A stretch of DNA of 64,000 nucleotides from Pseudomonadales bacterium (GCA_024234855.1 JACKNN010000006.1:54708-118707); one strand, 5' to 3'. Shown: positions 29,637 through 43,851, counted from the stretch's first letter. Numbers and translations are program-made. The notes: generated by a model not told the origin, from the letters alone.

Positions 29637-32600
29637 TCAGTGAAAATCACGCGAGCTCACCTGCAGGGACTGCAGTTCATGGGTGTAGTCGTACAGACCG
29701 CCGGCGATGATGTGGATGACGTTGTCCCTGGTCTCCAGGGTGCCGTTCACCAGCAGTAGCTGCGCGGACATCAATGGCTGGCGAAACTGCTGCTGGGTGC
29801 GCTGCCACACCACGATATTGCTGTTGCCGGTCTCGTCTTCCAGGGTGAGAAACAGCACGCCGGAGGCGCTGCCGGGGCGCTGGCGGCAGGTGACCAGTCC
29901 GGCGATGCGCACAAAGCGGTTGTTGCCCATCTGTGCCAGGTCGGCGTGGCGTTTGCAGCGGTCGAAAGGGGGGCGGTCGCGCAGCAGGCTCATGGGGTGC
30001 GCCCGCAGGGTGAGGCCGGTGGCGCGGTAATCGGCCAGCACCTCCTCCGCCACGCCCGGCGCCGGCAACTGTATGCCGTCATCGAAATAGCTGGCGGGCT
30101 CGGCCTGTTCCGACTGCAGCAGGGGGCGGGCCTGCTCCAGCGCCATGATCTGCCACTGGGACTGGTGGCGGTGGCCGCTGAGCGAGGCCAGCGCATCGGC
30201 ATCCGCCAGCGCTTCCATGTCGCGCTTGTCCAACTGCGCCCGCTGGCGCAGGTTGCTGACCTGGCGAAAGGGCGCCTGCTGGCGGGCTTCCACCACGCGC
30301 TGCGCGCCCTCCCTGCTGAGGCCTTTCACCAGCCGCAGCCCCAGGCGGATGGGCGGCTGCGCCGGCAGGCTTGATCGACCCTCCAGAAGTTGGTGATCCC
30401 AGTCGCTGTGATTGACATCGATGGGCAGCACGGTCACGTCGTGGCGCCGGGCGTCCTGCAGTAGCTGGGACGGGCTGTAAAACCCCATGGGCTGGCTGTT
30501 GAGCAGGCCGGCAAAAAAGGCCGCCGGGTGGTGGCGCTTGAGCCAGGCCGAGACATAGGCCAGCAGGGCGAAGCTGGCGGAGTGCGACTCCGGGAAACCG
30601 TAGCCGCCAAAGCCCTTGATCTGTTCGAACAGGCGGCGGGCGAAATCCTCGTCGTAACCGCGCGCTATCATGCCCCTGGTGAGCTTCTGCTCAAAGCTCA
30701 GCAGCTTGCTGTTCCTGCCCCAGTTGGTGATGGCCCGGCGCAGCTGGTCCGCCTCGCCACCGCTGAAGCCCGCCGCGACCATGGCCAGGCGAATCACCTG
30801 TTCCTGGAAGATGGGCACCCCCAGGGTGCGCTCCAATACCGATTTGATGGCCTCGCTGGGATAGGCGATGTCTTCCAGCCCCTGCTTGCGTCGCAGGTAG
30901 GGGTGCACCATGTCGCCCTGAATGGGGCCCGGCCGCACGATGGCGATCTCGATCACCAGGTCGTAAAAGCACCCGGGTTTGAGCCGCGGCAGCATGGACA
31001 TCTGGGCTCGGGACTCGATCTGGAATACACCCACCGTATCGGCCGCCTGCAACATGCGATAGGTGGCCGGGTCCTCTTTCGGGATATCGCTGACGGTCCT
31101 GATGGCGGGGCAGTAGCGGTGCACCAGCTGCAGGCTTTTCCTGATTGCCGACAACATGCCCAGGGCGAGGATGTCCACCTTGAGCAGGCCCAGCGTCTCG
31201 ATATCTTCCTTGTCCCACTGGATAACCGTGCGGTCAATCATGCTGGCGTTCTCCACCGGCACCAGGGTGGATATAGGGCTGCGGGTGATGACGAAGCCCC
31301 CCACATGCTGGGACAGGTGGCGGGGAAAGCCGAGTATCTGTTGCACCAGGGTGTAGAACAGCTGCGCCAGCCGGCTGTGTCCCGCCACGCCCTGTTCCTC
31401 GAAACGCTTGGCTAAATCGGCGGTGCGATCCCACCAGGCCATGGACCTGGCCAGATCGTCCACGAATACCGGGTCCAGCCCCAGTGCCTTGCCCACGTCG
31501 CGCACCGCGCTGCGGGAGCGGTAGGTGATGATGGTGGCGGCCAGGGCGGCGCGCTTGCGGGAGTACTTTTCATAGATGTACTGGATCACTTCCTCCCGGC
31601 GCTCGTGCTCGAAGTCGACGTCGATATCCGGCGGCTCGTCCCGCTCCCGGGAGATAAAACGCTCGAACAGCAGGGAGATCTGCTCGGGGGATACCTCGGT
31701 GATGAACAGGCAGTAGCACACCACCGAGTTGGCCGCCGAGCCGCGGCCCTGGCACAGGATGGCGCGCTCGCGGGCGAAGCGCACGATGTCGTACACGGTG
31801 AGAAAGTAGTACTCGTAATCCAGCTCCTCTATCAATAGCAGTTCGTGGTCTATGCGCTGCTGTATCTCCGCGGGAACGCCTTTTGGCCAGCGCGCCGCGC
31901 TGCCCTGCACCACCAGCTCTCGCAGGTAGTGCTTGGCGGAATAGCCTTCCGGCACGACCTCCTCGGGGTATTCGTAGCGCAGCTCGTCCAGGCTGAATTT
32001 GCAGAGCCGGGAGATGCGCAGCGTTTCGGCCAGCAGGGCAGGGGGGTAGAGCTGCTGTAATTTGTCCAGCGCTCGCAAATGCTGCTGGCTGTTGGCCAGG
32101 CGCTTGCGTCCCAGCTGCGTGATGCTGGTATTGTGGCGCAGCGCCGTAAACACGTCGTGCAGGGGTTTGCGGTGCGCGCTATGCATCTGCACATTGCCGC
32201 AGGCCGCCATGGGAATGCGCAGTTCGCTCGCCAACTGGTACAGCGCCTGATAGCGCCGGTGCTCGTCATTGCCCAGCAGGTGAGTGACGCCGAGCCAGAC
32301 CCGGTCTTTGCACAGCCTGCCCAGTTGCAGGCCCCAGGCCAGGTTGCTGTCATCGTTGCCCTCGGGCAGCCAGATCAGCAGGCAGCGCTTGAGGTGGAAA
32401 ATGACATCGCGCAGGGTGGCCTGGTACTGCCCCTTGGGACTGCGTCGCCGGGCCATGCTGATCAGCCCGGAAAGCTCACTGTAAGCCGCCCGGGAGGGTG
32501 CCAGTGCCACCAGTTTTATGCCCTCGGCCAGTTGGAATTCACTGCCCACGATTAACTGGATGCCGTGTTCCTTCGCAGCCATGTGGGCCTTGACGATACC

Positions 32601-32738
32601 CGCCAGTGAGCACTCGTCGGTAATGGCCAGCGCGGCATAGCCCAGCGCGGCCGCGCGCTCCACCAACTCGTGGGGGTGGGAGGCGCTGCGCAGGAAGCTG
32701 AAACAGCTGAGGCAATGGAGTTCAGCGTAGGTTGACAT
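29637..32738 (-). CDS. dnaE2: Error-prone DNA polymerase DnaE2 (ImuC)
   Basis: 1033 aa. N-terminal PHP domain YAELHCLSCFSFLRSASHP and Pol IIIalpha core motifs (PDIDVDFEH, GLLKVDILALG). It has no tau/beta C-terminal extension. A LexA box lies directly upstream. Confidence 0.93.
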   Translation of the reverse strand: MSTYAELHCLSCFSFLRSASHPHELVERAAALGYAALAITDECSLAGIVKAHMAAKEHGIQLIVGSEFQLAEGIKLVALAPSRAAYSELSGLISMARRRSPKGQYQATLRDVIFHLKRCLLIWLPEGNDDSNLAWGLQLGRLCKDRVWLGVTHLLGNDEHRRYQALYQLASELRIPMAACGNVQMHSAHRKPLHDVFTALRHNTSITQLGRKRLANSQQHLRALDKLQQLYPPALLAETLRISRLCKFSLDELRYEYPEEVVPEGYSAKHYLRELVVQGSAARWPKGVPAEIQQRIDHELLLIEELDYEYYFLTVYDIVRFARERAILCQGRGSAANSVVCYCLFITEVSPEQISLLFERFISRERDEPPDIDVDFEHERREEVIQYIYEKYSRKRAALAATIITYRSRSAVRDVGKALGLDPVFVDDLARSMAWWDRTADLAKRFEEQGVAGHSRLAQLFYTLVQQILGFPRHLSQHVGGFVITRSPISTLVPVENASMIDRTVIQWDKEDIETLGLLKVDILALGMLSAIRKSLQLVHRYCPAIRTVSDIPKEDPATYRMLQAADTVGVFQIESRAQMSMLPRLKPGCFYDLVIEIAIVRPGPIQGDMVHPYLRRKQGLEDIAYPSEAIKSVLERTLGVPIFQEQVIRLAMVAAGFSGGEADQLRRAITNWGRNSKLLSFEQKLTRGMIARGYDEDFARRLFEQIKGFGGYGFPESHSASFALLAYVSAWLKRHHPAAFFAGLLNSQPMGFYSPSQLLQDARRHDVTVLPIDVNHSDWDHQLLEGRSSLPAQPPIRLGLRLVKGLSREGAQRVVEARQQAPFRQVSNLRQRAQLDKRDMEALADADALASLSGHRHQSQWQIMALEQARPLLQSEQAEPASYFDDGIQLPAPGVAEEVLADYRATGLTLRAHPMSLLRDRPPFDRCKRHADLAQMGNNRFVRIAGLVTCRQRPGSASGVLFLTLEDETGNSNIVVWQRTQQQFRQPLMSAQLLLVNGTLETRDNVIHIIAGGLYDYTHELQSLQVSSRDFH

Positions 32739-32741
32739 ATG

Positions 32742-32757
32742 CTGTATATATATACAG
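32742..32757 (-). promoter_or_regulatory. LexA (SOS) box upstream of dnaE2
   Basis: CTGTATATATATACAG is a perfect CTGT-N8-ACAG within TACTGTATATATATACAGTA, the gammaproteobacterial consensus. It ends 4 nt from the dnaE2 ATG (32736-32738). Confidence 0.85.
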
Positions 32758-32797
32758 TATTATGAGTTTGGTCAAATTCGATGCGTTTTGGTGCCGG

Positions 32798-33434
32798 TCA
32801 GTCATCCACGGGGCTGATGACACCCAGAGCGCCGCGGTTCAACACGTGGGTGTAAATCTCCGTGGTGGTTACATCCTCATGCCCCAGCAGTTTTTGTATG
32901 GTGCGAATGTCATAGCCATTCTGGAGCAAGCGGGTGGCGAAACTATGCCGAAAGGTGTGTGTTTTAACAGGTTTTCGGATGTCGGTTTTCGCAACGGCTG
33001 CCCTGATATGTTTGCGCAGTGCTGGCAGTAACGTAATGCGATCCTTATCGCCTTTGCCCTGACGTACGGTAATCGTGTTGAGTGAAAAATCTACATCCTT
33101 CACGCGCAGTGAAAGACATTCCTGCAATCTCAGGCCGCTGCCATAAAGCAATTCGACCATCAACCTGGGGGTGCCGGACATATGGCTGAGAATCGCTCGG
33201 GTTTCCTCGTGGCTCAGTACCGTGGGTAGCCTGCGGGTGGGTTTGGCATAGCTGAAAGATAGTGTCTCGGGTTCACGCCGGTAAAACCTGGTGTACAAAT
33301 ACATCAGGGCGTTTAATCCAGTGCAGGTAGGTGCGCTCCGTGGAAAACGCATAACCGCGAGCCCTCATGTCTGCCCGCAACTGGTCCATTAGCCGGGTAG
33401 ATCCGGCGGGAATAGGGACGGGTATATCATCCAT
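32798..33434 (-). pseudogene. intI: Integron integrase intI, inactivated by deletions and a frameshift
   Basis: C-terminal part: LLYGSGLRLQECLSLRVKDVDF...RQGKGDKDR, HTFRHSFAT, LLGHEDVTTTEIYTHVLNRGALGVISPVDD (IntI-type tail). An N-terminal fragment in another frame from ATG 33434 (STRLMDQLRADMRARGYAFSTERTYLHWIKR) stops at 33285. About 45 aa are missing after HWIKR. About 70 aa, including the IntI-specific insertion, are missing between LPALRKHI and RAAVAK. Confidence 0.85.
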
Positions 33435-33775
33435 GAAATACACGCTTCGAAAAATGCCTGATGCCAGATCATCACAGGGGCTTTGTGCGCGTCAACATGG
33501 TGGCCGTTTCTCATTGGAAATAATCAACTGTATCTCGACAGGGCGACTGTAACCCGTTGAAAGATTGAGCTATGCTCCAGCAGCGGCCGTGAACAATGGG
33601 CCCGAGATCCACTCGGGGCACACAGCCAGGGTACTCTGATTCAAAAAAAAGCAAATTAAGTAAAAATGGTCAGGTGCTTGATGAATGGAAGATGTTTTCA
33701 ATTCGGGATTACTTCTATATGTGAACAAGGGGCCGTTTCTAGTTCTGATTTAGTTCAACGATTAAGCTGTTATGA
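33435..33775 (+). promoter_or_regulatory. attI / cassette-promoter region (candidate crossover GTTATGA at 33769-33775)
   Basis: A/T-rich non-coding stretch between the intI 5' end and the first cassette ORF. The last GTTRRRY match before cassette 1 is at 33769. No Pc promoter could be assigned confidently. Confidence 0.4.
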
Positions 33776-33803
33776 GGCCTGCGTTCGGGTATCGCGCTGA
33801 CTG

Positions 33804-33992
33804 ATGGGTACTCTACTCCCAATTATTCTGTCCCTGGCAATGGCCCTTGTTGCCGGGATAGAACTTAAGCGTCAGCGGCTCGTGCTGCGACCTTTTGTCA
33901 CAAGAGCCTCTAGCCCTGTTTGGTATTGGACAGAGGTGTATATCTCTATTGGTCTATGCTTGGTTTTCTTTCGGCAGGGTTTGAGCGCGTAA
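33804..33992 (+). CDS. Cassette 1: small two-TM membrane protein, unknown function
   Basis: 62-aa ORF with two hydrophobic segments. It is the only sizeable ORF in the 333-bp cassette between attI and attC1. No clear SD. Confidence 0.45.
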   Translation: MGTLLPIILSLAMALVAGIELKRQRLVLRPFVTRASSPVWYWTEVYISIGLCLVFFRQGLSA

Positions 33993-34016
33993 TGGGTATT
34001 CTACATGCACCGGTCT

Positions 34017-34108
34017 CATAACAAGTTGCTCAAATCCGTTCCGGCCCTGCGGGCCTCCACCGGACAGCCCAACCTGCGGTTCGTCTGCCGTTTAGCAAGG
34101 CGTTAGGT
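34017..34108 (+). repeat. attC site 1
   Basis: CATAAC-AAG-TTGC ... GCAA-GGC-GTTAGGT. R''/L'' pair with L'/R', and the core GTTAGGT is at 34102-34108. Confidence 0.8.
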
Positions 34109-34115
34109 GGACTAA

Positions 34116-34604
34116 TTGATTGAGCACGCCGACACATTTTATTTACTCGCTGAAGTTGCTATCGCAGTTGCTGGTTTCGCTGGTGTTGCAACCGTCTTTG
34201 GTGGACGCGAAAAGCGATTTCGCGATGCAGAGTTACTGCGACTAAGAGGGCTTTTTCAGCTTTCAGCACTTGTCCTGGCGGGTTGTTTTGGCATTGCTTC
34301 ATGTCAAGCGGCGGGATTATCTAACGAACAAACCATGTCACTCGTTTCAATGATTCTACTCGTTGCTTACGGGTTGGTTGTAATGGATGTGCCCGTAAAA
34401 GCTATACGGCTCTACCGAAAGAAAGAAACAACAGTCTCGCTTGGTGCTCTGACTGCTGCTTGGTCTTTGTATGTATTCGGTTTGCCGCTACTAACAATTA
34501 ATGCGTTCTTGCTTCGGCACGAATGGCCTCTAATCTTACTATTCTCATTGTCTATACTTACGGCGATTTGGCAGTTTTATCGGTTAGTAACGAAGGTTAA
34601 CTAG
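34116..34604 (+). CDS. Cassette 2: four-TM membrane protein, unknown function (paralogue of the cassette at 38753-39265)
   Basis: 162 aa from a TTG start. Hydrophobic helices. Shares AGFAGVATVFGGR / LLRLRGLF / WQFYRLV blocks with the later cassette protein. Confidence 0.6.
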   Translation: MIEHADTFYLLAEVAIAVAGFAGVATVFGGREKRFRDAELLRLRGLFQLSALVLAGCFGIASCQAAGLSNEQTMSLVSMILLVAYGLVVMDVPVKAIRLYRKKETTVSLGALTAAWSLYVFGLPLLTINAFLLRHEWPLILLFSLSILTAIWQFYRLVTKVN

Positions 34605-34612
34605 TGGATCCA

Positions 34613-34686
34613 CCTAACAAGTCAAGGCTGCAAGGGCGCTTCGCGCCGGGACGGCCTTACGGTCGCCCCAGCTTGAAGCGTTAAGT
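34613..34686 (+). repeat. attC site 2
   Basis: CCTAAC-AAG-TCAAGGCTG ... CAGCTTGA-AGC-GTTAAGT. The unpaired G in CAAGGCTG is typical of attC extrahelical bases. Confidence 0.85.
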
Positions 34687-35029
34687 GTCCGTGATCGCTC
34701 AACTAGAGAATACCGCTCCTCTTTCACAGGTCTGGTTTGTGCATGACTATATTCAGCTGAAGTTTCAAGATCGTACAGTTACAGTACTAAACACTCCAAA
34801 GTTACGGCTCTCTTCCGGTATGGTACTGAACAGGAGCGATGATGGCTTTTGCGACAATTTGGTATCTCAAATTGGGCAACCCATTGATGAAGCGCGGCTC
34901 ATCGAGGAAGAGCTCTTTTTCATAAGGTTTGCATCCGGCGTGGAGTTAATGGTTCCGCTAAACGATGAAGCTGTAAATGGCCCAGAAGCCTTAGAGTTGC
35001 CAGGAGCCTACGTTGTATTCAACACTTAA
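34685..35029 (+). CDS. Cassette 3: soluble 114-aa protein, unknown function
   Basis: The ORF fills the cassette. Its stop TAA lies inside the attC3 R'' box (CTTAAC). No recognisable motif. The start (GTG 34685 or 34691) is uncertain. Confidence 0.55.
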   Translation: MSVIAQLENTAPLSQVWFVHDYIQLKFQDRTVTVLNTPKLRLSSGMVLNRSDDGFCDNLVSQIGQPIDEARLIEEELFFIRFASGVELMVPLNDEAVNGPEALELPGAYVVFNT

Positions 35030-35101
35030 CAAGGGCAGGCAGTGCGCTCCCTCCGGTCGCCGGACGCGCGTACCGCGCGCCCGCTGCTGCAAGCGTTATG
35101 T
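35025..35101 (+). repeat. attC site 3
   Basis: CTTAAC-AAG-GGCAGGCAG ... CTGCTGC-AAGC-GTTATGT, with a GC-rich variable centre. Confidence 0.8.
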
Positions 35102-35132
35102 GCGCTGGACAGGCACTGTCCGAGGAGTATGA

Positions 35133-35403
35133 TTTGGGTATGGACACAACACTGAAGAATCTGCCTCTTGGTATGAATTGCAGAGGCTCGGTCTAGGTCA
35201 TGAATTCCTAGATATAGTTCTAGAGATGCTTAGCTCAATCGAACAAAGTCCATTGACTTACCCAATCGTGCACCGAAACGTTCAGAGGAGTGCTACCCAG
35301 ATTCCCATTCGCCATTTTCTATTTCTTGCAAGACGCAGAAATATCGGTCATTTCTGTCATGCATGGCAGTAGGGATCCATCCCGATGGCAGCGGCGCACA
35401 TAA
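35133..35403 (+). pseudogene. Cassette 4: ParE/RelE-family toxin remnant (frameshifted, N-terminally truncated)
   Basis: The frame of the track ORF gives SWYELQRLGLGHEFLDIVLEMLSSIEQSPLTYPIVHRNV. A +1 shift near 35290 gives RFPFAIFYFLQDAEISVISVMHGSRDPSRWQRR, the typical ParE/RelE C-terminus ending in the attC4 R'' box. No antitoxin ORF lies upstream. Confidence 0.7.
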
Positions 35404-35458
35404 CAAGCACAAGCAACCGGGACTGGCGTTCCGGCAGCCCTTGTTGTGGGCGTTATGT
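35397..35458 (+). repeat. attC site 4
   Basis: CACATAAC-AAG-CACAAGC ... CCTTGTTGTGG-GC-GTTATGT. A short (62 bp) attC. Confidence 0.8.
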
Positions 35459-35482
35459 GTCTCAGGGCATCAGGTCCAGGAT

Positions 35483-35950
35483 ATGAAAATGTACAACTAC
35501 GAACTTGAGCATATTTGTTCCGTCAAAGTTACTCTCCAGAACCCTCCTGAGGTCATCGGGCCTACGCCGGATGGGCTTCGTCTGAACATATATATCACAG
35601 GAGGAGAGGTGCGAGGTCCCCGACTAAATGGGAAAGTTCTTCCCGTGGGTGCAGATTGGCTGACCATTCGCAGTGATGGAGTGGGCGTCTTAGATATTAG
35701 AGCTACTATAGAGACTGACGATGGCGCACTGATCTATCTCTCTTACCAAGGCCTCGCCGATGCCGGTGAGGATGGGTACGAAAAATTCATCGAAGGGAAC
35801 CCTCCGTCTCCTGTTCCCCTTCGTGGAGCGCCACGCTTTCAGACAGCACATCCCGATTATCTCTGGCTAAATAGAATACAGTGCCACAATGTAGGTGAAG
35901 CTGACTTGGAAAGCTGGGTAGTGGGCTATGACCTCTATACGGTCAAATAG
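35483..35950 (+). CDS. Cassette 5: DUF3237 (UPF0311) family protein
   Basis: LNIYITGGEVRGPRLNGKVLPVGADWLTIRSDGVGVLDIRATIETDDGALIYLSYQG matches my recollection of the DUF3237 beta-barrel family. The start is ATG 35483. Confidence 0.7.
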   Translation: MKMYNYELEHICSVKVTLQNPPEVIGPTPDGLRLNIYITGGEVRGPRLNGKVLPVGADWLTIRSDGVGVLDIRATIETDDGALIYLSYQGLADAGEDGYEKFIEGNPPSPVPLRGAPRFQTAHPDYLWLNRIQCHNVGEADLESWVVGYDLYTVK

Positions 35951-35996
35951 GGTCGGCTAACGGGGCTTGGGCGGCATAGGGCAAGCTACGGCACTT

Positions 35997-36052
35997 CACA
36001 TAACAAGGCACGCAACCTGACGGCTACGCCGCCGGTTCGTTTGGCGTTAGGA
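35997..36052 (+). repeat. attC site 5
   Basis: CACATAAC-AAG-GCACGCAACC ... GGTTCGTTTG-GC-GTTAGGA (56 bp). Confidence 0.75.
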
Positions 36053-36117
36053 GTTCCTACCGCCCCAAAATCCACCTCTTGCTAAAAATGCCTTAGTGGT
36101 ATATTTTTTATACCATT

Positions 36118-36378
36118 ATGAAGTTTCAGTACGACCAAAGAAAAAGTGCCTCCAATCGCAAAAAGCATGGGATTGATTTTGAGCAGGCTCAATCTCTTTG
36201 GGATGACCCGAACTTGGTGGAATTGGCAGCGCGGTCTGACGATGAGGCAAGATCAATCGTGATTGCTCGCTTCAATCGCCAATACTGGTCAGCCGTATTT
36301 ACATATCGCGATGACGAGATTCGATTAATTTCGGTCAGGCGATCTCGGAAAGCTGAGGTAGAGCTTTATGAAAGCTAA
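36118..36378 (+). CDS. brnT: Cassette 6: BrnT-family (DUF497) ribonuclease toxin
   Basis: MKFQYDQRKSASNRKKHGIDFEQAQSLWDDPN is the BrnT N-terminal signature. 86 aa. It overlaps the downstream antitoxin gene by 11 nt. Confidence 0.85.
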   Translation: MKFQYDQRKSASNRKKHGIDFEQAQSLWDDPNLVELAARSDDEARSIVIARFNRQYWSAVFTYRDDEIRLISVRRSRKAEVELYES

Positions 36379-36601
36379 AGATTTCGACAAAAAATTCGAC
36401 CAGGGTAAGGAAGACATAATTGATGACCTGGATATTTCCAGTCTCAAACGGCCGAATCAAACACCTCGACGAGTTAACGTGGATTTTCCCGAATGGATGA
36501 TCATCTCTCTTGACAAAGAGGCGGCAAGACTGGGAGTTACTCGACAATCCATTATCAAAGTCTGGCTGGCGGAACGCCTTGAACACACCCCTAACAAGTA
36601 A
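36368..36601 (+). CDS. brnA: Cassette 6: BrnA (CopG/RHH-type) antitoxin
   Basis: RVNVDFPEWMIISLDKEAARLGVTRQSIIKVWLAERL is the ribbon-helix-helix C-terminus typical of BrnA. The stop lies inside the attC6 R'' region. Confidence 0.8.
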   Translation: MKAKDFDKKFDQGKEDIIDDLDISSLKRPNQTPRRVNVDFPEWMIISLDKEAARLGVTRQSIIKVWLAERLEHTPNK

Positions 36602-36663
36602 AGGCTGCAAGGCGCCTTCGGCGCGGGACGTCGTAACCGGCGCCCCAGCTTGAAGCGTTAGCA
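36590..36663 (+). repeat. attC site 6
   Basis: CCTAAC-AAG-TAAAGGCTG ... CAGCTTGA-AGC-GTTAGCA. Same class as attC2. Confidence 0.85.
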
Positions 36664-36850
36664 CACTCAGGAGATGAAGAGATGTCTGCTCCTTACCTTT
36701 TCAGGGATGGCGCAACCCAATGAACAACCAGATTACGAACAAGCGGAGAAGTACATAGTCGAGTGTGCTACCGATTGGGCAGAGTCGGTTGTGACCGGGG
36801 ATGTAGGACGGAGAAAGGTCTAATTTACGTTATCACTTCAAGCTAAATGA

Positions 36851-36911
36851 CACATAAGTAGTACAAGCTGTGGGGCGGCCGTACCGGCCGACCCGGTTGT
36901 AGGCGTTACAC
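36851..36911 (+). repeat. attC site 7 (diverged)
   Basis: CACATAAG-TA-GTACAAGC ... GGTTGTAG-GC-GTTACAC. The R'' box has G in place of the final C. Confidence 0.55.
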
Positions 36912-36933
36912 GTCTTTTCAGTTGGAGTGTTGT

Positions 36934-37251
36934 ATGGAATCGATCAATACAAGAATTCAAACAGCAGAATCGCTTTGGCTACTGGGTGCAGAGGCGGAGC
37001 GTTCAGAAAATTATCCGCTTGCTTACCGGCACTACACTGAAGCGCATGACCTGATAATGGACTGTGCAAGGCTTCATCAGTTGTCGCATGTAAAATTGCG
37101 AAGGGTAAATTACAAACTTGGCAACTATGGCGAATTTTTAACAGACTGGCTACTTCACTGTTTTGCGCCATTGGGAGTCTTTGAACTGGTATCCCGCCTT
37201 TCCAAAACAGATGCCTGGGGTTCAATCATCTGTAAGCGTAATGCAGCATAG
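36934..37251 (+). CDS. Cassette 8: soluble 105-aa protein, unknown function
   Basis: The ORF fills the cassette. ATG 36934 (MESINTRIQ) is preferred over the TTG at 36922. Looks helical (WLLGAEAERSENYPLAYRHYTEAHDL) with no recognisable motif. Confidence 0.55.
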   Translation: MESINTRIQTAESLWLLGAEAERSENYPLAYRHYTEAHDLIMDCARLHQLSHVKLRRVNYKLGNYGEFLTDWLLHCFAPLGVFELVSRLSKTDAWGSIICKRNAA

Positions 37252-37289
37252 TTATGCCATTCTTGCTGGGAAATCGCCGTTCAGATCCG

Positions 37290-37375
37290 CATAACAAGTG
37301 GCTCAAGATTGTGGCTTCGCCACTGGACAGCCTCAACCGGCGTATGCTTCGCTTTGTATGCGCCACTTGTGTCTG
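37290..37375 (+). repeat. attC site 8 (degenerate R' core)
   Basis: CATAAC-AAG-TGGC ... GCCA-CTT-GTGTCTG. The 5' half resembles attC1, but the core is GTGTCTG rather than GTTRRRY. Confidence 0.55.
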
Positions 37376-37426
37376 CCCCTTGCCTCACAGCGAGTTGGAG
37401 TGGTCAAGCATTTTGTGACAACCCAG

Positions 37427-38305
37427 TTAAGCGGCCTTCCTCATTTCAACCATTGCTGACTCGTACTCACTGGGGCTGACATATCCCAGATACGAATGCA
37501 GTCTCCGGCTGTTGTAAAACATCGTCATGTAGTCCAGCACGTCCTGCTGAGCTTCATAGCGTGTCTGATAGCTGTGCCAGTGGACCCGTTCCTTCTTCAA
37601 GCTGGCAAAGAAACTTTCCGCCACACTATTGTCCCAACAATTTCCCTTGCGACTCATGCTGCCGATAAAACCATGCTTTGCCAGTAATCGCCGGTAAGCC
37701 TTGCTGGCGTACTGTGAGCCGCGATCTGAATGCACTATCAACCCCGGCTTAGGCCGACGCTGCCAAATCGCCATACGGAGCGCGTCAGTCACCAGGCTCG
37801 CCTTCATGCGTGAACTCATACTCCAGCCCACCACCCGCCGGGAAAAAAGGTCGATGACCACCGCCAGGTACAGCCACCCCTCCTGGGTCCACAGATAGGT
37901 GATATCCGAGACATAGGCCTGATCGGGACCAGAGACCGAAAACTGGCGGTCCAGTACGTTCTCAAAGAGCGGCTGCTGGTGATTGCTGTTCGTGGTCACC
38001 TTGTATTTCTTGCGGTGTCGAACGGTAATACCAGCTTCCCGCATGAGCTTTCTGGCCTTCTGGCGGCTGACCGGGTAGCCCAAAGCATTCAGGGCACGCT
38101 TCATGCGGCGTGTGCCGTAGCTGTTATCGCTGGCCTTCGCGATCTCCTTGACAGCCTCCAGCATTTCCTGGTGTTCAGGATCCGGTTGCGTCGTATTCCT
38201 GCGTTTGCAATAGCTGTAATAGCCATTGCGGGTGACACCCAGTAATCGACACATCAGGTCGACAGGCCAGGTCTTCTTGTATCGGGTGATGAACGCGTAT
38301 TTCAT
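37427..38305 (-). CDS. IS3-family transposase OrfB (DDE catalytic domain), expressed by -1 frameshift as OrfAB
   Basis: WLYLAVVIDLFSRRVVGW, HSDRGSQYAS and NCWDNSVAESFFASLKKE form the DDE triad context. The -1 frame from the A7 run reads directly into this ORF. Confidence 0.9.
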   Translation of the reverse strand: MKYAFITRYKKTWPVDLMCRLLGVTRNGYYSYCKRRNTTQPDPEHQEMLEAVKEIAKASDNSYGTRRMKRALNALGYPVSRQKARKLMREAGITVRHRKKYKVTTNSNHQQPLFENVLDRQFSVSGPDQAYVSDITYLWTQEGWLYLAVVIDLFSRRVVGWSMSSRMKASLVTDALRMAIWQRRPKPGLIVHSDRGSQYASKAYRRLLAKHGFIGSMSRKGNCWDNSVAESFFASLKKERVHWHSYQTRYEAQQDVLDYMTMFYNSRRLHSYLGYVSPSEYESAMVEMRKAA

Positions 38306-38601
38306 CGCGTTTCCTTGGCGAAGAAGACCGTCGCTTTTTTTAGGATCTCTTTCTCCATCTTCAGGCGTCGATTCTCTTCCTTCAAGCGTCGAATCTCGGC
38401 TTGATCCGGAGTCAGTTTTCCATTTCCGCGAAACGCCTGGCCTTCATCGGATTCGGATTCTTTGATCCAGCGCTGTAGCACGCTACGGTTGAGTTCCAGA
38501 CTTCTCGCTGCCTCCGTAATTGTGTAGCCCTGATCAGTTACCAGGCTAATAGCATCCAGTTTAAATTCCTTCGAATATTGCTTTCTCGTACTCATTTCCA
38601 A
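38302..38601 (-). CDS. IS3-family transposase OrfA (HTH)
   Basis: YSKEFKLDAISLV...TITEAARSLELNRSVLQRWIKE, followed by a leucine-zipper-like region. The slippery A AAA AAA G is at 38335-38341 (T-run on the + strand). Confidence 0.9.
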   Translation of the reverse strand: MEMSTRKQYSKEFKLDAISLVTDQGYTITEAARSLELNRSVLQRWIKESESDEGQAFRGNGKLTPDQAEIRRLKEENRRLKMEKEILKKATVFFAKETR

Positions 38602-38705
38602 TCTCCAGTTTGGGGTATTATCCCTTAACTGGGTTGGTCACATCTATTGAACCACTTCAAGTGACAGAAATAGTGCCACATTTATGAAAACTGAATTAGT
38701 GACTA

Positions 38706-38754
38706 CATAGAAGCGTCAGGCGAATGCTACGCGCCGCAGCTTGAAGTGTTAACT
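38706..38754 (+). repeat. attC remnant (3' half of class attC2/attC6), core GTTAACT
   Basis: ...GCGCCGCAGCTTGAAGTGTTAACT matches the 3' arms of attC2 and attC6. The 5' arm (CATAGAAGC) is degenerate. Confidence 0.45.
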
Positions 38755-38827
38755 GGCGGAGGAGGTCCCTATCGAAGTTCTAGGATACATAATTGAATTC
38801 TCCATTGGTCTGGCGGGATTCTCTGGG

Positions 38828-39265
38828 GTGATCGCTGTGTTCACATCGCGCTCCCAGGCTAACGTGGGTTTGGATCGATTCAGGATTAGAAATCTTCTAC
38901 TCTTTTCGATGGGTCCCGCTTTTTTGTGCTTCATTGCAATCGCGCTTCTGGAAATCACCAGTACCGAAAACTGCGCATGGAGACTGGCGTGCATATTCCA
39001 GTCGCTGTTTCTTCTGCTGATAATTGCTGCGACTTTGAAAGCGAAAGGCAAACTTACTGAAGCTCAGTACTCGCAGATAAATGTTCCGGTAATGCGTGCA
39101 GTGTTAGTTGTGTTCTCGCTTGTGAGCGTAGTTCTACTCCTAACCGGTTTGGGTATGATCGGGCTTGAGGCTTTCGTGCTCTTCTATGTGGGTCTGGTAG
39201 TAGTTCTTTTGGTGGGTGTATATCAATTTTTCAGAGCAGTTTTGGAGGGACTACAAGGCACCTGA
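38828..39265 (+). CDS. Cassette 10: four-TM membrane protein, paralogue of cassette 2 (true start probably upstream, at or after 38753)
   Basis: The track ORF starts at GTG 38828. Similarity to cassette 2 continues in frame upstream (IEVLGYIIEFSIGLAGFSGVIAVFTSR versus FYLLAEVAIAVAGFAGVATVFGGR), back to the stop at 38750-38752. Only non-ATG start candidates (CTG 38753, ATC 38771, ATT 38792) are available. Confidence 0.6.
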   Translation: MIAVFTSRSQANVGLDRFRIRNLLLFSMGPAFLCFIAIALLEITSTENCAWRLACIFQSLFLLLIIAATLKAKGKLTEAQYSQINVPVMRAVLVVFSLVSVVLLLTGLGMIGLEAFVLFYVGLVVVLLVGVYQFFRAVLEGLQGT

Positions 39266-39406
39266 GCTTTCTGACTGGAGAGCGCAAGCAGCCGCCCCTT
39301 CGGGGCTGGACCTCGCTACGCCGGGTCGTTGGTGCCAGAAAGTACCAAAGACAAGCTGATTCCACCCATATAGAATCTATCGGAGAATCAGCCCGTCGCC
39401 ATAGGC

Positions 39407-39413
39407 GTTACGT
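39407..39413 (+). repeat. Possible attC core (GTTACGT) closing cassette 10
   Basis: GGCGTTACGT lies immediately before the next ORF, as at other cassette junctions. No convincing R'' partner was found in the preceding 140 bp, which contains a CCCCTTCGGGG hairpin. Confidence 0.3.
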
Positions 39414-39417
39414 CTGT

Positions 39418-39783
39418 ATGTCAGGGAGTGTCATGCATCCTGTTTTGATATCCGTAGTCCTTTTAATCTGCAGCAATGTCTTCATGACGTTTGCATGGTA
39501 TGCACATCTGAAAGAACTCAATAACAAGCCCTGGATAATTGCTGCCCTGGTGAGTTGGGGAGTTGCGCTCTTCGAGTACCTGTTTCAGGTCCCTGCGAAC
39601 CGGTTGGGCTTTACGGTGCTGTCGGTGGGGCAACTGAAAATCATTCAGGAAGTTATTACTCTTACCGTGTTTGTGCCGTTTTCGGTGATGTATCTCAAGG
39701 AACCACTGAAACTCGACTACTTATGGGCTGGGTTTTGTCTCGTTGGTGCCGTGTATTTTATGTTCAGGGGCAAGTTCGTGTAA
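39418..39783 (+). CDS. DMT-superfamily small membrane protein (DUF486)
   Basis: NVFMTFAWYAHLK...FEYLFQVPANRLGF...GQLKIIQEVITLTVF matches the conserved DUF486/DMT family pattern. 121 aa. Confidence 0.75.
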   Translation: MSGSVMHPVLISVVLLICSNVFMTFAWYAHLKELNNKPWIIAALVSWGVALFEYLFQVPANRLGFTVLSVGQLKIIQEVITLTVFVPFSVMYLKEPLKLDYLWAGFCLVGAVYFMFRGKFV

Positions 39784-39831
39784 CAGGGCCGTCTGCCTGT
39801 GCGCGGCTCAATGTGGCTTTAGGTATTTGGC

Positions 39832-40131
39832 ATGAAATCGGACAGCGCTTCACTGGATGGGCCGGTAAAACTTAAGGTCAGGGTTGTCCCGGGGGCGTCC
39901 CGGTCTGCAATATCCGGATGGCTTGATGATGTGCTGAAAGTTCGGGTTTCTGCCCAGCCTGAGAAGGGAAAAGCCAACACGGCGGTGGTTATGTTACTGT
40001 CCGGCAGGCTCGGCCTTCCCAAAAGCTCGCTCAATATATCGTCGGGGAAAACATCCCCGAACAAGGTCATCGAAATTCACGGCTTATCAATCGCAGAGGT
40101 CATGCGTAAGTTGGATGCTGACAGCGCCTGA
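39832..40131 (+). CDS. DUF167 (YggU-like) family protein
   Basis: VKLKVRVVPGASRSAISGWLDDVLKVRVSAQPEKGKANTAVVMLLS is the YggU/UPF0235 signature. 99 aa. Confidence 0.75.
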   Translation: MKSDSASLDGPVKLKVRVVPGASRSAISGWLDDVLKVRVSAQPEKGKANTAVVMLLSGRLGLPKSSLNISSGKTSPNKVIEIHGLSIAEVMRKLDADSA

Positions 40132-40145
40132 CAGGAGTGAAGTGA

Positions 40146-40352
40146 ATGGAAAGCGAATATCAGTTCATCTGGGGATTGCTGTTCGGAGCTATAGGTTTCG
40201 GCTATTTTCTGTATGGCAGAAAACAACGGGTGGCCATGCCATTCCTCAGCGGCATAGCACTTTGTGTTTTTCCCTACTTCGTAAGCAATGTGTACACGAT
40301 GGTCTTAACTGGCGTGGTGCTGCTGGCACTTCCATACTTCATAAGAGTCTAG
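40146..40352 (+). CDS. Small two-TM membrane protein, unknown function
   Basis: 68 aa with two hydrophobic helices, starting 15 nt downstream of the DUF167 gene. Confidence 0.5.
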   Translation: MESEYQFIWGLLFGAIGFGYFLYGRKQRVAMPFLSGIALCVFPYFVSNVYTMVLTGVVLLALPYFIRV

Positions 40353-40365
40353 TCAGTCGCGTCTG

Positions 40366-40419
40366 CCGGCCTCTAGCAAGCGGAGCGGGAATAGCGGGGC
40401 AGGTGAGAGGGCGTTAAGG
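40366..40419 (+). repeat. Possible last attC (degenerate), core GTTAAGG at 40413-40419
   Basis: CTCTAGCAAGCGG ... GAGAGG-GC-GTTAAGG. The R'' is TAGC rather than TAAC. This call is weak. Confidence 0.3.
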
Positions 40420-40468
40420 AATTGCATGCCCATTGTCGATTTGTTGGTCCACAGCTACCGGGGAAAAT

Positions 40469-41053
40469 ATGTATATACCCGCACAATTTGCAATATCCGA
40501 CAGGGCTGAGATATTCGCCTTTATAGAAGCCAATGCCTTTGGCCAGCTTATCTCGACGGTAGACAACAGGCTCTTTGTTACCCACCTGCCTTTTCTCGTT
40601 TCCGGCGACAGGACCCGGCTGTTCGGCCATGTGGCCAGGCAGAACCCACAGCACCTCGATCTGGACGGTCAGGAGATACTGGTCACTTTCGAGGGGCCAC
40701 ACGATTACATTTCGCCCTCCTGGTACGGCAGCCCGGGCGTCCCCACCTGGAACTACCAGGCGGTTCACGTTTACGGCAAGTGTGCTGTATTTAATGAGCC
40801 CGGCAGGCTGGCAGAGCTGGTGGGCCGCCTTACGGAAAAATACGAATCGGCCTTTGAGGTGCCATGGCGGCCCGAGTACAAGGCGACGATGCTGGGCGCC
40901 ATTGTCGGTATAGAGATTCTCATTGGCGAGGTTCAGGGCAAGTTCAAGCTGAGCCAGAACCGGCCGGACAATGATCGACTGGCAGTGATAAAGGCGCTGG
41001 AAGAAAACGGCTCCACCAAACTGGCCGCCGCCATGAAAGTCCATAAATCCTGA
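40469..41053 (+). CDS. PaiB-family FMN-binding transcriptional regulator-like protein
   Basis: MYIPAQFAISDRAEIFAFIEANAFGQLIS...HLPF...GKFKLSQNR are PaiB family hallmarks. The start is ATG 40469. Confidence 0.8.
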   Translation: MYIPAQFAISDRAEIFAFIEANAFGQLISTVDNRLFVTHLPFLVSGDRTRLFGHVARQNPQHLDLDGQEILVTFEGPHDYISPSWYGSPGVPTWNYQAVHVYGKCAVFNEPGRLAELVGRLTEKYESAFEVPWRPEYKATMLGAIVGIEILIGEVQGKFKLSQNRPDNDRLAVIKALEENGSTKLAAAMKVHKS

Positions 41054-41094
41054 TAGAATCCAGTATCGTACAACCATGTGATGAGAATATTTTG

Positions 41095-41688
41095 ATGAGT
41101 GAAGCTCTGGACCAATCCGTATTGAATCAGGCGTTTGTCAACGCCCGCACAACCAACAAGTTTACCGGGCGGGACGTGCCGGATGCGCTGATTTTACAGC
41201 TGTACGAGCTGATGAAGTGGGGGCCTACCTCGATGAACTGCCAGCCCGGCCATTACGTCATGGTTAAGAGCGAGGCGGCGAAGCAGCGTTTGATTCCGGC
41301 CCTGATGCCGGGCAACCGGGACAAGACCCTGGGCGCACCGGTTACGGTGATTGTCGCTACTGATACCCGGTTTTATGAAAACCTGTCGAGCCAGTTCCCC
41401 GCCAACCCAAAGGCCGGTGAGATGTTTGAGTCCAGTGCCGAGCTGTCCCGGGTGACGGCATTCAGGAATGGCACCTTGCAGGGGGCCTACCTGATACTGG
41501 CCGCCCGCATGCTGGGCCTGGATTGTGGGCCGATGAGCGGCTTTGATAACCGCGCGGTCGATGCCGAGTTCTTTCCGGAAGGACGATATCAATCCAATTT
41601 CCTGGTCAATATCGGCTTTGGCGACCCCGCTGGCAATCACCCCAGGGGGCCGAGGCTCGCATTTGATCAGGCCGTGGAGGTTGTTTGA
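41095..41688 (+). CDS. Nitroreductase-family protein, RutE-like (malonic semialdehyde reductase-like)
   Basis: FVNARTTNKF...LMKWGPTSMNCQP...AFRNGTLQGAYLILAARMLGLDCGPMSGFD closely follows the RutE pattern. Confidence 0.8.
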   Translation: MSEALDQSVLNQAFVNARTTNKFTGRDVPDALILQLYELMKWGPTSMNCQPGHYVMVKSEAAKQRLIPALMPGNRDKTLGAPVTVIVATDTRFYENLSSQFPANPKAGEMFESSAELSRVTAFRNGTLQGAYLILAARMLGLDCGPMSGFDNRAVDAEFFPEGRYQSNFLVNIGFGDPAGNHPRGPRLAFDQAVEVV

Positions 41689-41711
41689 TGACCGGTAGTG
41701 AGTAGGGGCCT

Positions 41712-42017
41712 ATGTTCGCGGTGATATTCAAGGCGGAGATCGCTCAGCTGGATGCTGAATATAGCGATATGGCGGCCCATATGAGGGAGCTGGCTATCAG
41801 CCAGTACGGATGTACCCAGTTCACCAGTTGCACCGAGGGTAACAGGGAGATTGCGATCTCTTACTGGGAGTCCCAGGACCAGATCCGGCGCTGGAAGCAG
41901 GACGCGGCACACCTGGTGGCGCAAGACAAGGGGCGTTCAAAATGGTACAGCGCGTATACCGTGGAAGTGGTCGAGCTGGTGCGCAGTTATGGCTCGGGCA
42001 GCCTGGCACCCTTATGA
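41712..42017 (+). CDS. Antibiotic-biosynthesis-monooxygenase (ABM) domain protein
   Basis: 101 aa. VIFKAE...ISYWESQDQIRRWKQ is the ferredoxin-like ABM fold signature. Confidence 0.7.
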   Translation: MFAVIFKAEIAQLDAEYSDMAAHMRELAISQYGCTQFTSCTEGNREIAISYWESQDQIRRWKQDAAHLVAQDKGRSKWYSAYTVEVVELVRSYGSGSLAPL

Positions 42018-42274
42018 ATGAGAAATTGCCTATGCCCGGCTCCGGGCGCGCAGCCGATGTCAGGCAAAGGCGGGGTACCGCGGTGCTGCTGTGTGTGCTC
42101 GCCCTGGCGGCCTGCAGCCAGCGCCAGGTGTACGACACCATCCAGAACAATCAGCAACTGGAGTGCCAGAAGCTGCCGGGCACCCAGTACGAGGAATGCA
42201 TGAAGCAGGTCTCGGAGCCCTATGATGACTATAAGCGGGAGCGGGACGAACTGGTAAAGGAAAAGCCACCGTAG
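42014..42274 (+). CDS. Small lipoprotein, unknown function
   Basis: Lipobox LALAAC after a basic N-terminus. 86 aa from ATG 42014. Overlaps the ABM gene stop (ATGA). Confidence 0.6.
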   Translation: MNEKLPMPGSGRAADVRQRRGTAVLLCVLALAACSQRQVYDTIQNNQQLECQKLPGTQYEECMKQVSEPYDDYKRERDELVKEKPP

Positions 42275-42413
42275 CATGACCGTGGCTTGCGGGAGCTGGC
42301 GCCCGGACCCCGGCCTTTGCGGTGGATTCGCGCCGCAATCAACCGTACTATCGGCAGGGCCAGTCACTGGCACATTCCTGTCCAAGAACCACAAGCAGCC
42401 GCATAGGAGAGAT

Positions 42414-42965
42414 ATGGCCGAGCGATTTTCCTCCCTGCAGGACCGGCACATCCGGTTTATCGCGGAGCAGCACCTGTTTTTCGTGGGCACCGCCGGCCGG
42501 GAGGGTTATATCAATGTCTCGCCCAAGGGCATGGACAGTTTCAGGGTAACCAGCCCCACGGAGGTCGCCTGGCTCAACCTCACCGGCAGCGGCAATGAGA
42601 GCGCCGCGCACGTGGCAGAGAATGGCCGCATGACCATCATGTTCTGCTCCTTCGGCAAGCAGCCCCTGATCATGCGATTGTATGGCCAGGCGACGGTGGT
42701 GCATCCCCGGGATGGGGACTGGCCCGCCCTGCTGGCATTGTTTCCGGCCGAACCGGGCGCGCGGCAGATCTTCCGTCTCACGCTGGACCTGGTGCTAACC
42801 TCCTGCGGCTACGCCGTTCCCCGCTACGAATTGAAAAGCGAGCGGCCAACCCTGACCAGGTGGACGGAGCAAAAGGGGCCGGATGGTATCAGGCAGTACT
42901 GGCAAGAAAAAAATACCCTGACCCTGGACGGCAAGCCCACCGGCATTTTCGCGGATATCGAATAG
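42414..42965 (+). CDS. Pyridoxamine 5'-phosphate oxidase-family (FMN-binding split-barrel) protein
   Basis: HIRFIAEQHLFFVGTAGREGYINVSPKG...LNLTGSGNESAAHV...MFCSF...LRLYG pattern. The start is ATG 42414. Confidence 0.75.
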   Translation: MAERFSSLQDRHIRFIAEQHLFFVGTAGREGYINVSPKGMDSFRVTSPTEVAWLNLTGSGNESAAHVAENGRMTIMFCSFGKQPLIMRLYGQATVVHPRDGDWPALLALFPAEPGARQIFRLTLDLVLTSCGYAVPRYELKSERPTLTRWTEQKGPDGIRQYWQEKNTLTLDGKPTGIFADIE

Positions 42966-42998
42966 CTCCGCCGTCCAGACTCCCCAAAAGGATATCAA

Positions 42999-43334
42999 AT
43001 GAGTGATGTACCGCCCTGCCCTGAATGCAAGTCACCGTACGGCTACGATGACGGCAATATGTTCGTCTGCCCGGAGTGTGGTCACGAGTGGTCAAAGGAC
43101 GCCGCTACCGCGGGCGATGATCCTGTCATCAAGGATGCCAACGGCAATGTGCTGAGCGACGGTGATACCGTCACCGTGATCAAGGACCTCAAGGTCAAGG
43201 GCACCTCGCTGGTGGTCAAGGTGGGCACCCGGGTCAAGAATATCCGGCTGGTGGAGGGCGACCACGATATTGATTGCAGGATCGATGGCATAGGTGCGAT
43301 GAAACTGAAATCGGAATTTGTCAAAAAGGCCTGA
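42999..43334 (+). CDS. yjdM: Zinc-ribbon protein YjdM (PhnA)
   Basis: [10 protein letters not shown]...CPECGHEW zinc ribbon plus [23 protein letters not shown]...[19 protein letters not shown]. 111 aa. Confidence 0.9.
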
Positions 43335-43369
43335 ACCGGGTTTGCATCACTATCTGAGCGGAGCCTGTG

Positions 43370-43822: not shown

Positions 43823-43828
43823 ACTTCG

Positions 43829-43851
43829 GCCGGCGGCTTCAGTCCGCCGGC
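43829..43851. terminator. GC hairpin between convergent genes (possible bidirectional terminator)
   Basis: GCCGGCGG-cttcagt-CCGCCGGC, between the phosphatase-like gene stop (43822) and the imuB stop (43913). It has no clear U-tract. Confidence 0.35.

Follow-up and report, generated by a model that had tools for sequence, protein, structure and literature searches.

The 64-kb window analysed here, a stretch of contig JACKNN010000006.1 with all positions counted from the window's first nucleotide, contains an element that a first-pass annotation had described as a chromosomal integron lodged between the SOS mutagenesis genes imuB and dnaE2. The source of the window is a Halieaceae (OM60/NOR5) gammaproteobacterium, and the window DnaE2 is identical to the DnaE2 of JACKNQ010000007.1 (GCA_024234835.1) and of several metagenome contigs. 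We conclude, with a probability of roughly 0.9, that the element is a partly decayed sedentary chromosomal integron of the Halieaceae, with the 3' end of its integrase gene, intI, directly upstream of the LexA-repressed dnaE2 promoter. Below, compared loci and contigs carry L-numbers and homologous integrase (IntI) proteins carry P-numbers; ORF stands for open reading frame.

Genes and features at the locus

29637-32738, minus strand: dnaE2, error-prone DNA polymerase, 1033 amino acids (NF004225, 1403 bits; cutoff 939)
32742-32775, minus strand: dnaE2 promoter, with LexA box CTGTATATATATACAG at 32742-32757 and a -35-like TTGACC at 32770-32775
32798-33434, minus strand: intI pseudogene, best family TIGR02249, two deletions
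33435-33772, plus strand: intergenic region between intI and the cassettes, with attI; G/TT crossover at 33769/33770 within GCTGTTATGAGG
33770-34102, plus strand: cassette 1, ORF 33804-33992 (62 amino acids, no family, no Pfam match), attC1 at 34014-34110
34103-34680, plus strand: cassette 2, ORF 34116-34604 (162 amino acids, no family), attC2 at 34610-34688
34681-35095, plus strand: cassette 3, ORF 34685-35029 (114 amino acids, stop codon inside R''), attC3 at 35022-35103
35096-35452, plus strand: cassette 4, remnant of a two-gene cassette, attC4 at 35396-35460
35453-36046, plus strand: cassette 5, DUF3237 protein at ~35484-35950 (PF11578, E 6e-34), attC5 at 35996-36054
36047-36657, plus strand: cassette 6, toxin-antitoxin pair of brnT (36118-36378) and a brnA-like gene (36368-36601), attC6 at 36587-36665
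36658-36905, plus strand: cassette 7, short, no ORF of at least 50 amino acids, attC7 at 36850-36913 with damaged R'' (CATAAG)
36906-40419, plus strand: distal cassette-like units with putative decayed attC remnants, recognised by G+C content and Pfam/NCBIfam matches
37396-38659, minus strand: IS3-family insertion sequence (IS), orfA 38302-38601 and orfB 37427-38305 (NF033516, 367 bits)

The DnaE2 protein contains the Pfam domains PHP, DNA_pol3_alpha, finger, HHH_6 and OB. In cassette 6, brnT matches PF04365 (E 1e-23), and the brnA-like gene matches PF12441 weakly (E 0.0024, 19.1 bits against a cutoff of 28). The ORFs of 33.8-40.4 kb are short, unrelated to one another and all on the plus strand, as are all attC sites, so that the minus-strand recombinase remnant faces a plus-strand array, as the first-pass annotation had described. 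The A+T richness that it had pointed out is likewise present: the flanks have a G+C content of 0.63-0.66, compared with 0.53 for intI, 0.50 for cassettes 1-7 and 0.46 for the attI region.

attC sites

The element has the standard layout, with intI on one strand, attI adjoining it and co-oriented promoterless cassettes on the other strand; each cassette ends in an attC site, whose folded single strand is the substrate of recombination, with crossover between G and TT. A covariance model, R1, was built from 66 attC sites of other genomes and included no sequence of the window or its sister strains. The source arrays were those of L007, L010, L017-L020, L023 and the Arenicella contig L060, which lie next to mostly full-length intI genes, and that of L027, where no intI was detected. 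In the R1 alignment, the L-box helix is 87% paired, with compensatory changes in nine of nine pairs; over the whole structure, 82.7% of cells are paired, compared with 30-40% in controls in which the partner columns were slid.

When R1 was run over all 64 kb with filters off, seven sites were found, none of them on the minus strand or outside 34014-36913, with scores of 28-72 bits (E 4e-5 to 1e-16), and no other match had E < 1 (the next best had E > 1). The scores were 54.4 bits for attC1 (E 5e-12), 69.8 for attC2, 71.7 for attC3, 60.5 for attC4, 42.7 for attC5, 57.5 for attC6, and 28.3 for attC7 (E 4e-5). Taken alone, the seven window sites have 88.9% of L-box cells paired and compensatory changes in eight of nine L-box pairs, and they show the R'' and R' cores, the unpaired spacer, the L-box stem with its unpaired base, and the variable loop of attC sites. 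The model is specific: in 86 dnaE2 loci, 115 of 116 matches lay upstream of dnaE2 and on the strand of the cassettes, and almost all came from loci with intI at that place (L027 and L033 have attC matches and no detected intI). It also recovers the attC array of an unrelated Amphritea atlantica integron. We conclude that the seven attC sites are real.

The motifs alone point to the same region. On the plus strand, 9 of the 13 GCGTTA copies of the window lie inside 33.7-40.45 kb (neither of the two minus-strand copies does), and so do 8 of the 10 copies of TAACAAG. The first-pass annotation had proposed that an imperfect palindrome of attC architecture follows each ORF. This proposal, which it had suggested be checked with an attC covariance model, is borne out at the seven sites and lacks statistical support for the distal units, whose proposed sites score 9.3 bits or less with R1. 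The motifs it had used were too strict, GCGTTARRY giving two matches (no better than chance) and YWTAACAAG five. It had also placed the stop codons of several ORFs inside R''; only that of cassette 3 (35027-35029) is so placed, and the brnA-like stop codon (36599-36601) is elsewhere inside its attC. Two other searches of the window returned nothing: the Rfam scan gave no match and is uninformative, since Rfam has no attC model, and an AAC...GTT pattern with complementary arms, searched without gaps, detected none of the real attC sites, because attC has unpaired bases.

The integrase pseudogene

Two overlapping minus-strand ORFs, 32798-33352 and 33273-33443, best match the integron integrase family TIGR02249 (218.9 bits, E 1e-64). 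The next-best model, XerA, is ~77 bits lower, and the XerC and XerD models (~128 bits) are ~90 bits lower. The nearest homologues are 312-amino-acid proteins named integron integrase (73-80% identity), and full-length relatives score 390-430 bits with TIGR02249. Among full-length homologues, P0002 is the closest to the window copy; IntI proteins of the L008 or L018 type are 78-83% identical to P0002. The recombinase remnant belongs to the IntI clade; the IntI-type assignment of the first-pass annotation thus stands against the Xer families.

The gene carries two deletions. The older, in-frame loss of ~74 amino acids (junction ~33022/33023) is common to the window and to allele P0001 of L094 and sister strains, which is 99% identical, 238 amino acids long and, at 305 bits, above the TIGR02249 cutoff of 265 (alignment A1). 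It removed TIGR02249 positions ~168-241, between the KGDKDR hairpin and the HxxR box, which hold the IntI-specific insertion. A DNA alignment with L094/P0001 reveals a second deletion in the window, of 125 nt, which shifts the frame at ~33309-33313 between AACGC repeats. The residues of the conserved catalytic motifs GLR, KGDKDR, HTFRH, LLGH and EIYTHV are still encoded. Judged by its sequence, the window integrase is dead.

A promoter-like site for intI, TTGACG-16-GATGAT, is present on the minus strand at 33495-33468, and no LexA box (CTGT-N8-ACAG) was found upstream of the window intI. Most relatives have a perfect LexA box at the -10 region of intI (L009, L014, L017, L019, L023, L025, L026, L030, L031, L046, L054 and L060), whereas in the window no such box overlaps the intI promoter. 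With two deletions in the integrase and no LexA box upstream, recombination in the window strain would not be under SOS control.

At least eight Halieaceae IntI homologues (P0001, P0003, P0012, P0014, P0024, P0026, P0036 and P0041) carry differing in-frame deletions; in alignment A1 all of these are central and spare both ends. Selection for the 5' end (a cassette promoter?) and the 3' end (the context of dnaE2) could account for this pattern, and ascertainment bias could equally do so, because frameshifted genes get called as fragments.

Several observations weigh against the reading of the element as an integron, or limit it. The recombinase scores below the curated TIGR02249 cutoff, and an intact IntI would have an additional domain between the K and HxxR motifs, which the window copy does not have; below the cutoff and without the IntI-defining insertion, it makes the element, strictly, an integron remnant. 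In the window, only seven attC sites are significant, and the training sites of R1 were picked with the regular expression TAAC[AT]AG...G[CT]GTTA, so the model favours attC sites of this type and its E-values are approximate. Single-site minimum free energy folding of the bottom strand gave z from +1.25 to -1.95, and the attC fold (R-box plus L-box) appeared only for attC1-4; at the other sites G+C-rich loops dominate, and this kind of folding alone does not discriminate. A crude scan of 32600-34000 gave no plus-strand sigma-70 consensus match, and the cassette promoter (Pc) was not found. The portion from 36.9 to 40.4 kb is assigned on composition, gene size, orientation and partial motifs.

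It might be argued from the sub-cutoff score, the additional matches to the XerA, XerC and XerD models, the unremarkable folding and the lack of an Rfam match (from a database with no attC model) that the locus is no integron at all, and that a fragment of a phage- or Xer-type integrase lies beside unrelated palindromic repeats, such as repetitive extragenic palindrome-like elements or terminators. The margin of IntI over the Xer models, the IntI insertion in the closest full-length homologues, the R'' and R' cores with their unpaired spacer, the covarying L-box with one unpaired base, the strand polarity, the G/TT logic and the exchange of cassettes described below all speak for an integron, and the non-integron reading is already effectively refuted; we give it next to no credence.

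Cassette junctions and exchange between strains

Since recombination takes place between the G and the TT of R', the start of a cassette is expected to be complementary to that cassette's own R''. The attI junction, GCTG/TTATGAGG with the G at 33769, matches the reverse complement of the attC1 R'' at seven of eight positions. From attI through attC7, the eight bases after G/TT match the R'' of the next site at 7, 7, 6, 8, 5, 5 and 2 of 8 positions, compared with an average of 3.8 of 8 for non-neighbours; cassettes 2, 3 and 4 thus match at 7/8, 6/8 and 8/8, and cassette 7 at only 2/8. The cassettes are co-oriented, the array is divergent from intI, and the crossover is at G/TT. The identification of the element as an integron is therefore upheld by the IntI-clade remnant, the attI junction and the co-oriented, attC-bounded cassettes that point away from intI.

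The first-pass annotation had suggested that sister strains be compared for cassette content, and variation was found. In L001 and L096, two other cassettes stand in place of window cassettes 1-3, replaced as a block: one contains an ORF with an Excalibur domain and an inserted DDE transposase element, and the other an alpha/beta hydrolase. Divergence between the window and L001 begins exactly at the attI GTTA and ends exactly at the attC3 G/TT, so whole cassettes were exchanged at these two points, and the junctions of L001 themselves conform to the chain rule. Other polymorphisms among sister strains are the presence or absence of the IS3 and the 125-nt intI deletion, and in cassette 4 the window has lost ~212 nt between GAAGAAnCTGCCT repeats (13 nt, ~35160) relative to L001, L002 and L094. 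These structural variants occur in several combinations among contigs and identity varies by segment, so homologous exchange between strains can explain their spread. The variation does not imply current activity of the dead window integrase. An active IntI may have produced the strain differences, either in an ancestor or acting in trans, with homologous recombination spreading them later.

The precision of the cassette exchange, between near-identical strains whose flanks are 99.97% identical, together with the seven fully intact attC sites and the maintained chain rule, would also fit an array that is still active in the window strain, with an additional, intact IntI, encoded at another genomic site or by a mobile element, acting on it in trans. 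We consider this unlikely. The 64-kb window holds no second intI, homologous recombination can spread the same variants, the distal sites are decaying as expected without a recombinase, and attI sites are normally recognised only by the cognate IntI. Under our preferred reading of a decayed sedentary integron, the window platform is a fossil, with the IntI-specific region lost, a 125-nt frameshift, no LexA box, decay of distal attC sites and an inserted IS3, and its cassettes would be transcribed from a promoter near attI.

Where cassette 4 has not suffered this deletion (L001, at 6068-6293, L002 and L094), it appears to contain two small overlapping ORFs that look by eye like a toxin-antitoxin pair. 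The brnT/brnA pair of cassette 6 recurs at 95-97% protein identity in Sediminihaliea L027 (1700-2180). In L027, a chromosomal attC array lies upstream of dnaE2 with no detectable intI. It thus resembles a CALIN, a cluster of attC sites without an integrase, located at the anchor position shared with the window.

The distal part of the array

Beyond attC7, the ORFs are 36922-37251, 38828-39265, a DMT_6/DUF486 gene (39418-39783), a DUF167 gene (39832-40131) and 40115-40417. The proposed distal attC sites are 37287-37375, a half-site ending at ~38751, ~39404-39410, ~39781-39830 and 40369-40421, none of them significant with R1. Three of the distal units end in GCGTTA-like motifs, the remnant ends being GTGTTAAC (~38751), GCGTTAC (39405-39410) and GCGTTAAG (40411-40418), and the units are cassette-like in size, orientation and G+C content (0.48-0.50). 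We infer that about five distal units are former cassettes with decayed attC sites. The span 32798-40419 claimed for the integron consequently holds to 36913; beyond that point the attC sites are unsupported, and a polymorphic IS3 is included.

The IS3 is 1264 bp long, with TG...CA ends and a 3-bp AGT target duplication; L002 and L095 have it, and L001 and L098 lack it at exactly this point. The idea that it interrupts an attC site proved wrong, as it sits inside a distal unit. A paralogous relationship between the ORF of cassette 2 and that at 38828-39265 was likewise unsupported (E 2.3).

Anchoring of the integron upstream of dnaE2

At 18 Halieaceae-type genome loci (within L007-L046, L053 and L085), intI lies just upstream of dnaE2 and is co-directional with it. 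At L013, only the 3' end of intI is upstream of dnaE2, and two loci have attC arrays without intI. Further dnaE2-linked cases are L091, L104 and L105. Among IntI proteins looked up individually, P0001, P0026, P0031 and P0034 are encoded next to dnaE2, P0041 is on the same contig as L010, and P0014 is followed by an unannotated gene cut by the contig end. Every Halieaceae IntI with an identifiable downstream flank adjoins dnaE2 on its upstream side, and the same junction recurs in ~20 Halieaceae genomes, metagenome-assembled genomes and metagenome contigs, in agreement with the chromosomal nature claimed by the first-pass annotation. This is the constant location across a taxon that is expected of a sedentary integron; a large array of similar attC sites (~20 or more) is not seen in the window, which has seven sites of several sequence types. 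The relatives L019, L020 and L060 have 17-20 attC sites within the visible 8-10 kb. DnaE2 proteins of the anchored relatives are only 71-89% identical and their IntI proteins 55-80%, which at the same junction indicates long residence.

A G+C content lower than that of the flanks and the presence of IS elements could also be taken as signs that a mobile integron or genomic island arrived recently and landed by chance between imuB and dnaE2 in one strain. Such an origin is very improbable: it is already contradicted by the conserved location in many diverged Halieaceae, no Tn402-like or other transposition genes flank the element, and the IS elements are later, polymorphic arrivals.

The sedentary integron occurs in two layouts. 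In the unfused layout (window, L007, L008, L013, L017 and L020), intI stops ~60 nt before dnaE2, whose promoter and LexA box are intact; L017, which is from a cultured carrier, Halieaceae bacterium WMMBA7, has both LexA boxes. In the fused layout (L009, L010, L014, L016, L023, L025, L026, L030, L031, L104 and L105; for L104 and L105 the intI reading frame was taken from gene calls), only 2-30 nt separate the intI stop codon from the dnaE2 ATG, and dnaE2 lacks a promoter and box of its own; in those loci whose contigs extend far enough upstream, there is a single LexA box, ~30 nt ahead of intI. L054 and the Arenicella contig L060, from another gammaproteobacterial lineage, are also fused, and in a rough neighbour-joining tree their IntI proteins group apart, as a clade of their own. 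Eleven of the 13 fused loci, L054 and L060 included, have a full-length intI, and L010 has an in-frame central deletion. Spacing and the absent dnaE2 promoter suggest that intI and dnaE2 of the fused loci are co-transcribed as an SOS-controlled operon. IntI was not next to dnaE2 in Amphritea atlantica, at two other IntI loci or in L100 (75% identical to the L060 IntI), and a metagenome scan with the L060 IntI gave five loci and no new dnaE2-linked case.

A broader interpretation can be offered tentatively, at somewhat less than even odds. The intI-dnaE2 linkage would be conserved and probably selected, with the two genes forming one LexA-controlled operon in many lineages; the fused layout would be convergent, and the window would represent the unfused, presumably ancestral state, in which the integrase decayed once uncoupled.

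A related proposal is that the intI remnant and the spacer were retained in order to serve dnaE2, through promoter context or read-through, and that the junction is a functional regulatory unit. The two genes are co-directional and only 59 nt apart, with no terminator predicted between them; relatives have intI fused to dnaE2 behind a single upstream LexA box, and Halieaceae intI deletions repeatedly leave both ends. We nevertheless doubt it strongly for the window, where a full promoter with LexA box, positioned as in integron-free relatives, belongs to dnaE2 itself, which needs nothing from intI, and where the intI promoter has no LexA box; the sparing of both ends is, moreover, subject to the bias towards in-frame deletions mentioned above.

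Three small opposite-strand genes lie downstream of intI in L091 (5366-6041) and L093 (4291-5565), both of which have a deleted intI, in L091 between intI and dnaE2; no R1-detectable attC site was found with them. L015, L018, L019 and L046 have 0.45-1 kb inserted between intI and dnaE2. Many contigs of metagenome-assembled genomes, among them L008, L010, L012, L014, L015 and L016, stop within 2 kb of dnaE2 on its upstream side, shortly beyond intI and at the border of the array. Assemblies thus tend to break at this integron, which would leave it under-reported.

dnaE2, imuB and imuA

The genes on the far side of the array are as follows.

40433-43822, plus strand: seven resident non-cassette genes between the array and imuB; no attC matches, G+C 0.587
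43913-45419, minus strand: imuB (43913-45340, GTG start) with LexA box at 45404-45419
46783-47582, minus strand: imuA (46783-47532; NF033429, 207.9 bits, cutoff 150) with LexA box at 47567-47582

The position between imuB and dnaE2 given by the first-pass annotation is correct, and imuA is also nearby. The IMS-domain match of imuB is weak; its identity rests on synteny, because homologues (28-42% identity) abut dnaE2 in ~35 more distant genomes. Homologues of imuA lie directly upstream of imuB in canonical operons. A 114-amino-acid ORF upstream of imuB was considered as imuA and rejected in favour of 46783-47532.

Exact CTGT-N8-ACAG boxes occur three times in the window (32742, 45404 and 47567; 0.69 expected). 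imuA, imuB and dnaE2 thus lie within 18 kb, each with a gammaproteobacterial LexA box. The dnaE2 promoter layout, TTGAC[AC], ~17 nt, LexA box and an ATG 3 nt further on, is kept with and without an integron, the box being at -18 to -20 in L022, L027, L036 and L042, which are listed as integron-free. As the box ends 3 nt before the ATG, the dnaE2 transcript may be leaderless.

The three genes do not form a single contiguous operon in the window. imuA and imuB are 1.4 kb apart, with two small ORFs, and imuB and dnaE2 11.2 kb apart, with opposite-strand genes in both gaps. The imuA-imuB-dnaE2 operon with one LexA box was found only outside the Halieaceae (L048-L086). Within the Halieaceae (window, L034-L045, L053 and L085), each of the three genes forms a unit with a LexA box of its own, and unrelated genes intervene. 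Integron-free Luminiphilus has an opposite-strand lipocalin gene after imuB, and a separate LexA box precedes its dnaE2, at -18 to -22. Since dnaE2 has its own promoter in integron-free Halieaceae too, the window integron broke no operon. The description of an integron inside a LexA-controlled polymerase locus therefore holds as to location; the dnaE2 box is the gene's own, the integrase is evidently dead and has no LexA box, and no operon was split.

Relation to known systems

As a chromosomal integron in decay, the element is nothing out of the ordinary; what is notable is the conserved attachment to dnaE2 and, in relatives, the apparent SOS operon. Lineage-specific anchoring with integrase decay is known from other chromosomal integrons, e.g., those of Xanthomonas, which are reportedly anchored next to ilvD. 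Like the window, Xanthomonas integrons have one conserved site per lineage, an often inactivated intI, varying cassettes and decaying distal sites. Their anchor is ilvD, whereas here it is an SOS gene, to which intI is apparently transcriptionally fused in many relatives. The Vibrio cholerae superintegron and other large sedentary integrons share with the window a chromosomal location, toxin-antitoxin cassettes (usual in chromosomal arrays), cassettes of mostly unknown function and a co-oriented array divergent from intI. The V. cholerae superintegron has more than 100 attC sites of a homogeneous repeat, in contrast to seven intact sites of several types and a dead intI without a LexA box. The CALIN is said to be a category of the IntegronFinder program. 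Functionally, the window resembles it in having an attC cluster without a working integrase nearby; unlike a CALIN, it keeps a recognisable intI pseudogene and attI, while true CALINs seem to occupy this site in L027 and L033. Finally, the window has all three genes of the imuA-imuB-dnaE2 SOS mutagenesis cassette, each LexA-boxed; the canonical cassette is one operon, whereas here the integron and unrelated genes stand between separate units.

LexA control of intI was reported by Cambray et al. 2011 (PMC3108266), and a box at the -10 region is seen in relatives of the window; that survey does not mention polymerases or these taxa. Full-text literature searches returned no report of an integron adjoining dnaE2 or lying within a mutasome locus, and the Halieaceae papers that they yielded do not refer to integrons. 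The insertion site, of which the first-pass annotation knew no description, is undescribed in the searchable literature.

Integrons and the ImuA-ImuB-DnaE2 mutasome, the two best-known SOS-induced generators of variation, are here physically linked across an abundant marine family. If the fused loci are operons, DNA damage would trigger cassette shuffling and error-prone synthesis from one promoter. The linkage provides a natural setting in which to test for co-selection of cassette recombination and induced mutagenesis. In practice, dnaE2 offers a conserved anchor by which the cassette arrays of Halieaceae can be retrieved from metagenomes. The window records a path of integron decay, with loss of the LexA box, stepwise deletion of the integrase, erosion of distal attC sites and IS invasion.

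Resident genes

The seven genes between the array and imuB encode a PaiB-like FMN-binding protein, a nitroreductase, two small ORFs, a PNPOx-like protein, YjdM/PhnA (yjdM 42999-43334; TIGR00686, 158 bits) and a sulfurtransferase-like protein of 151 amino acids (43367-43822). Cassette transcription was said to run convergently with imuB; the orientation is right, and the two face each other only at a distance, across these genes. A 267-amino-acid minus-strand ORF (orf267, 43082-43885) downstream of imuB was dismissed as a shadow ORF opposite yjdM and the sulfurtransferase-like gene. L011, L021 and L022, which have no integron, likewise carry the PNPOx-like gene and/or yjdM upstream of dnaE2, and imuB is present on L011 and L022 as well.

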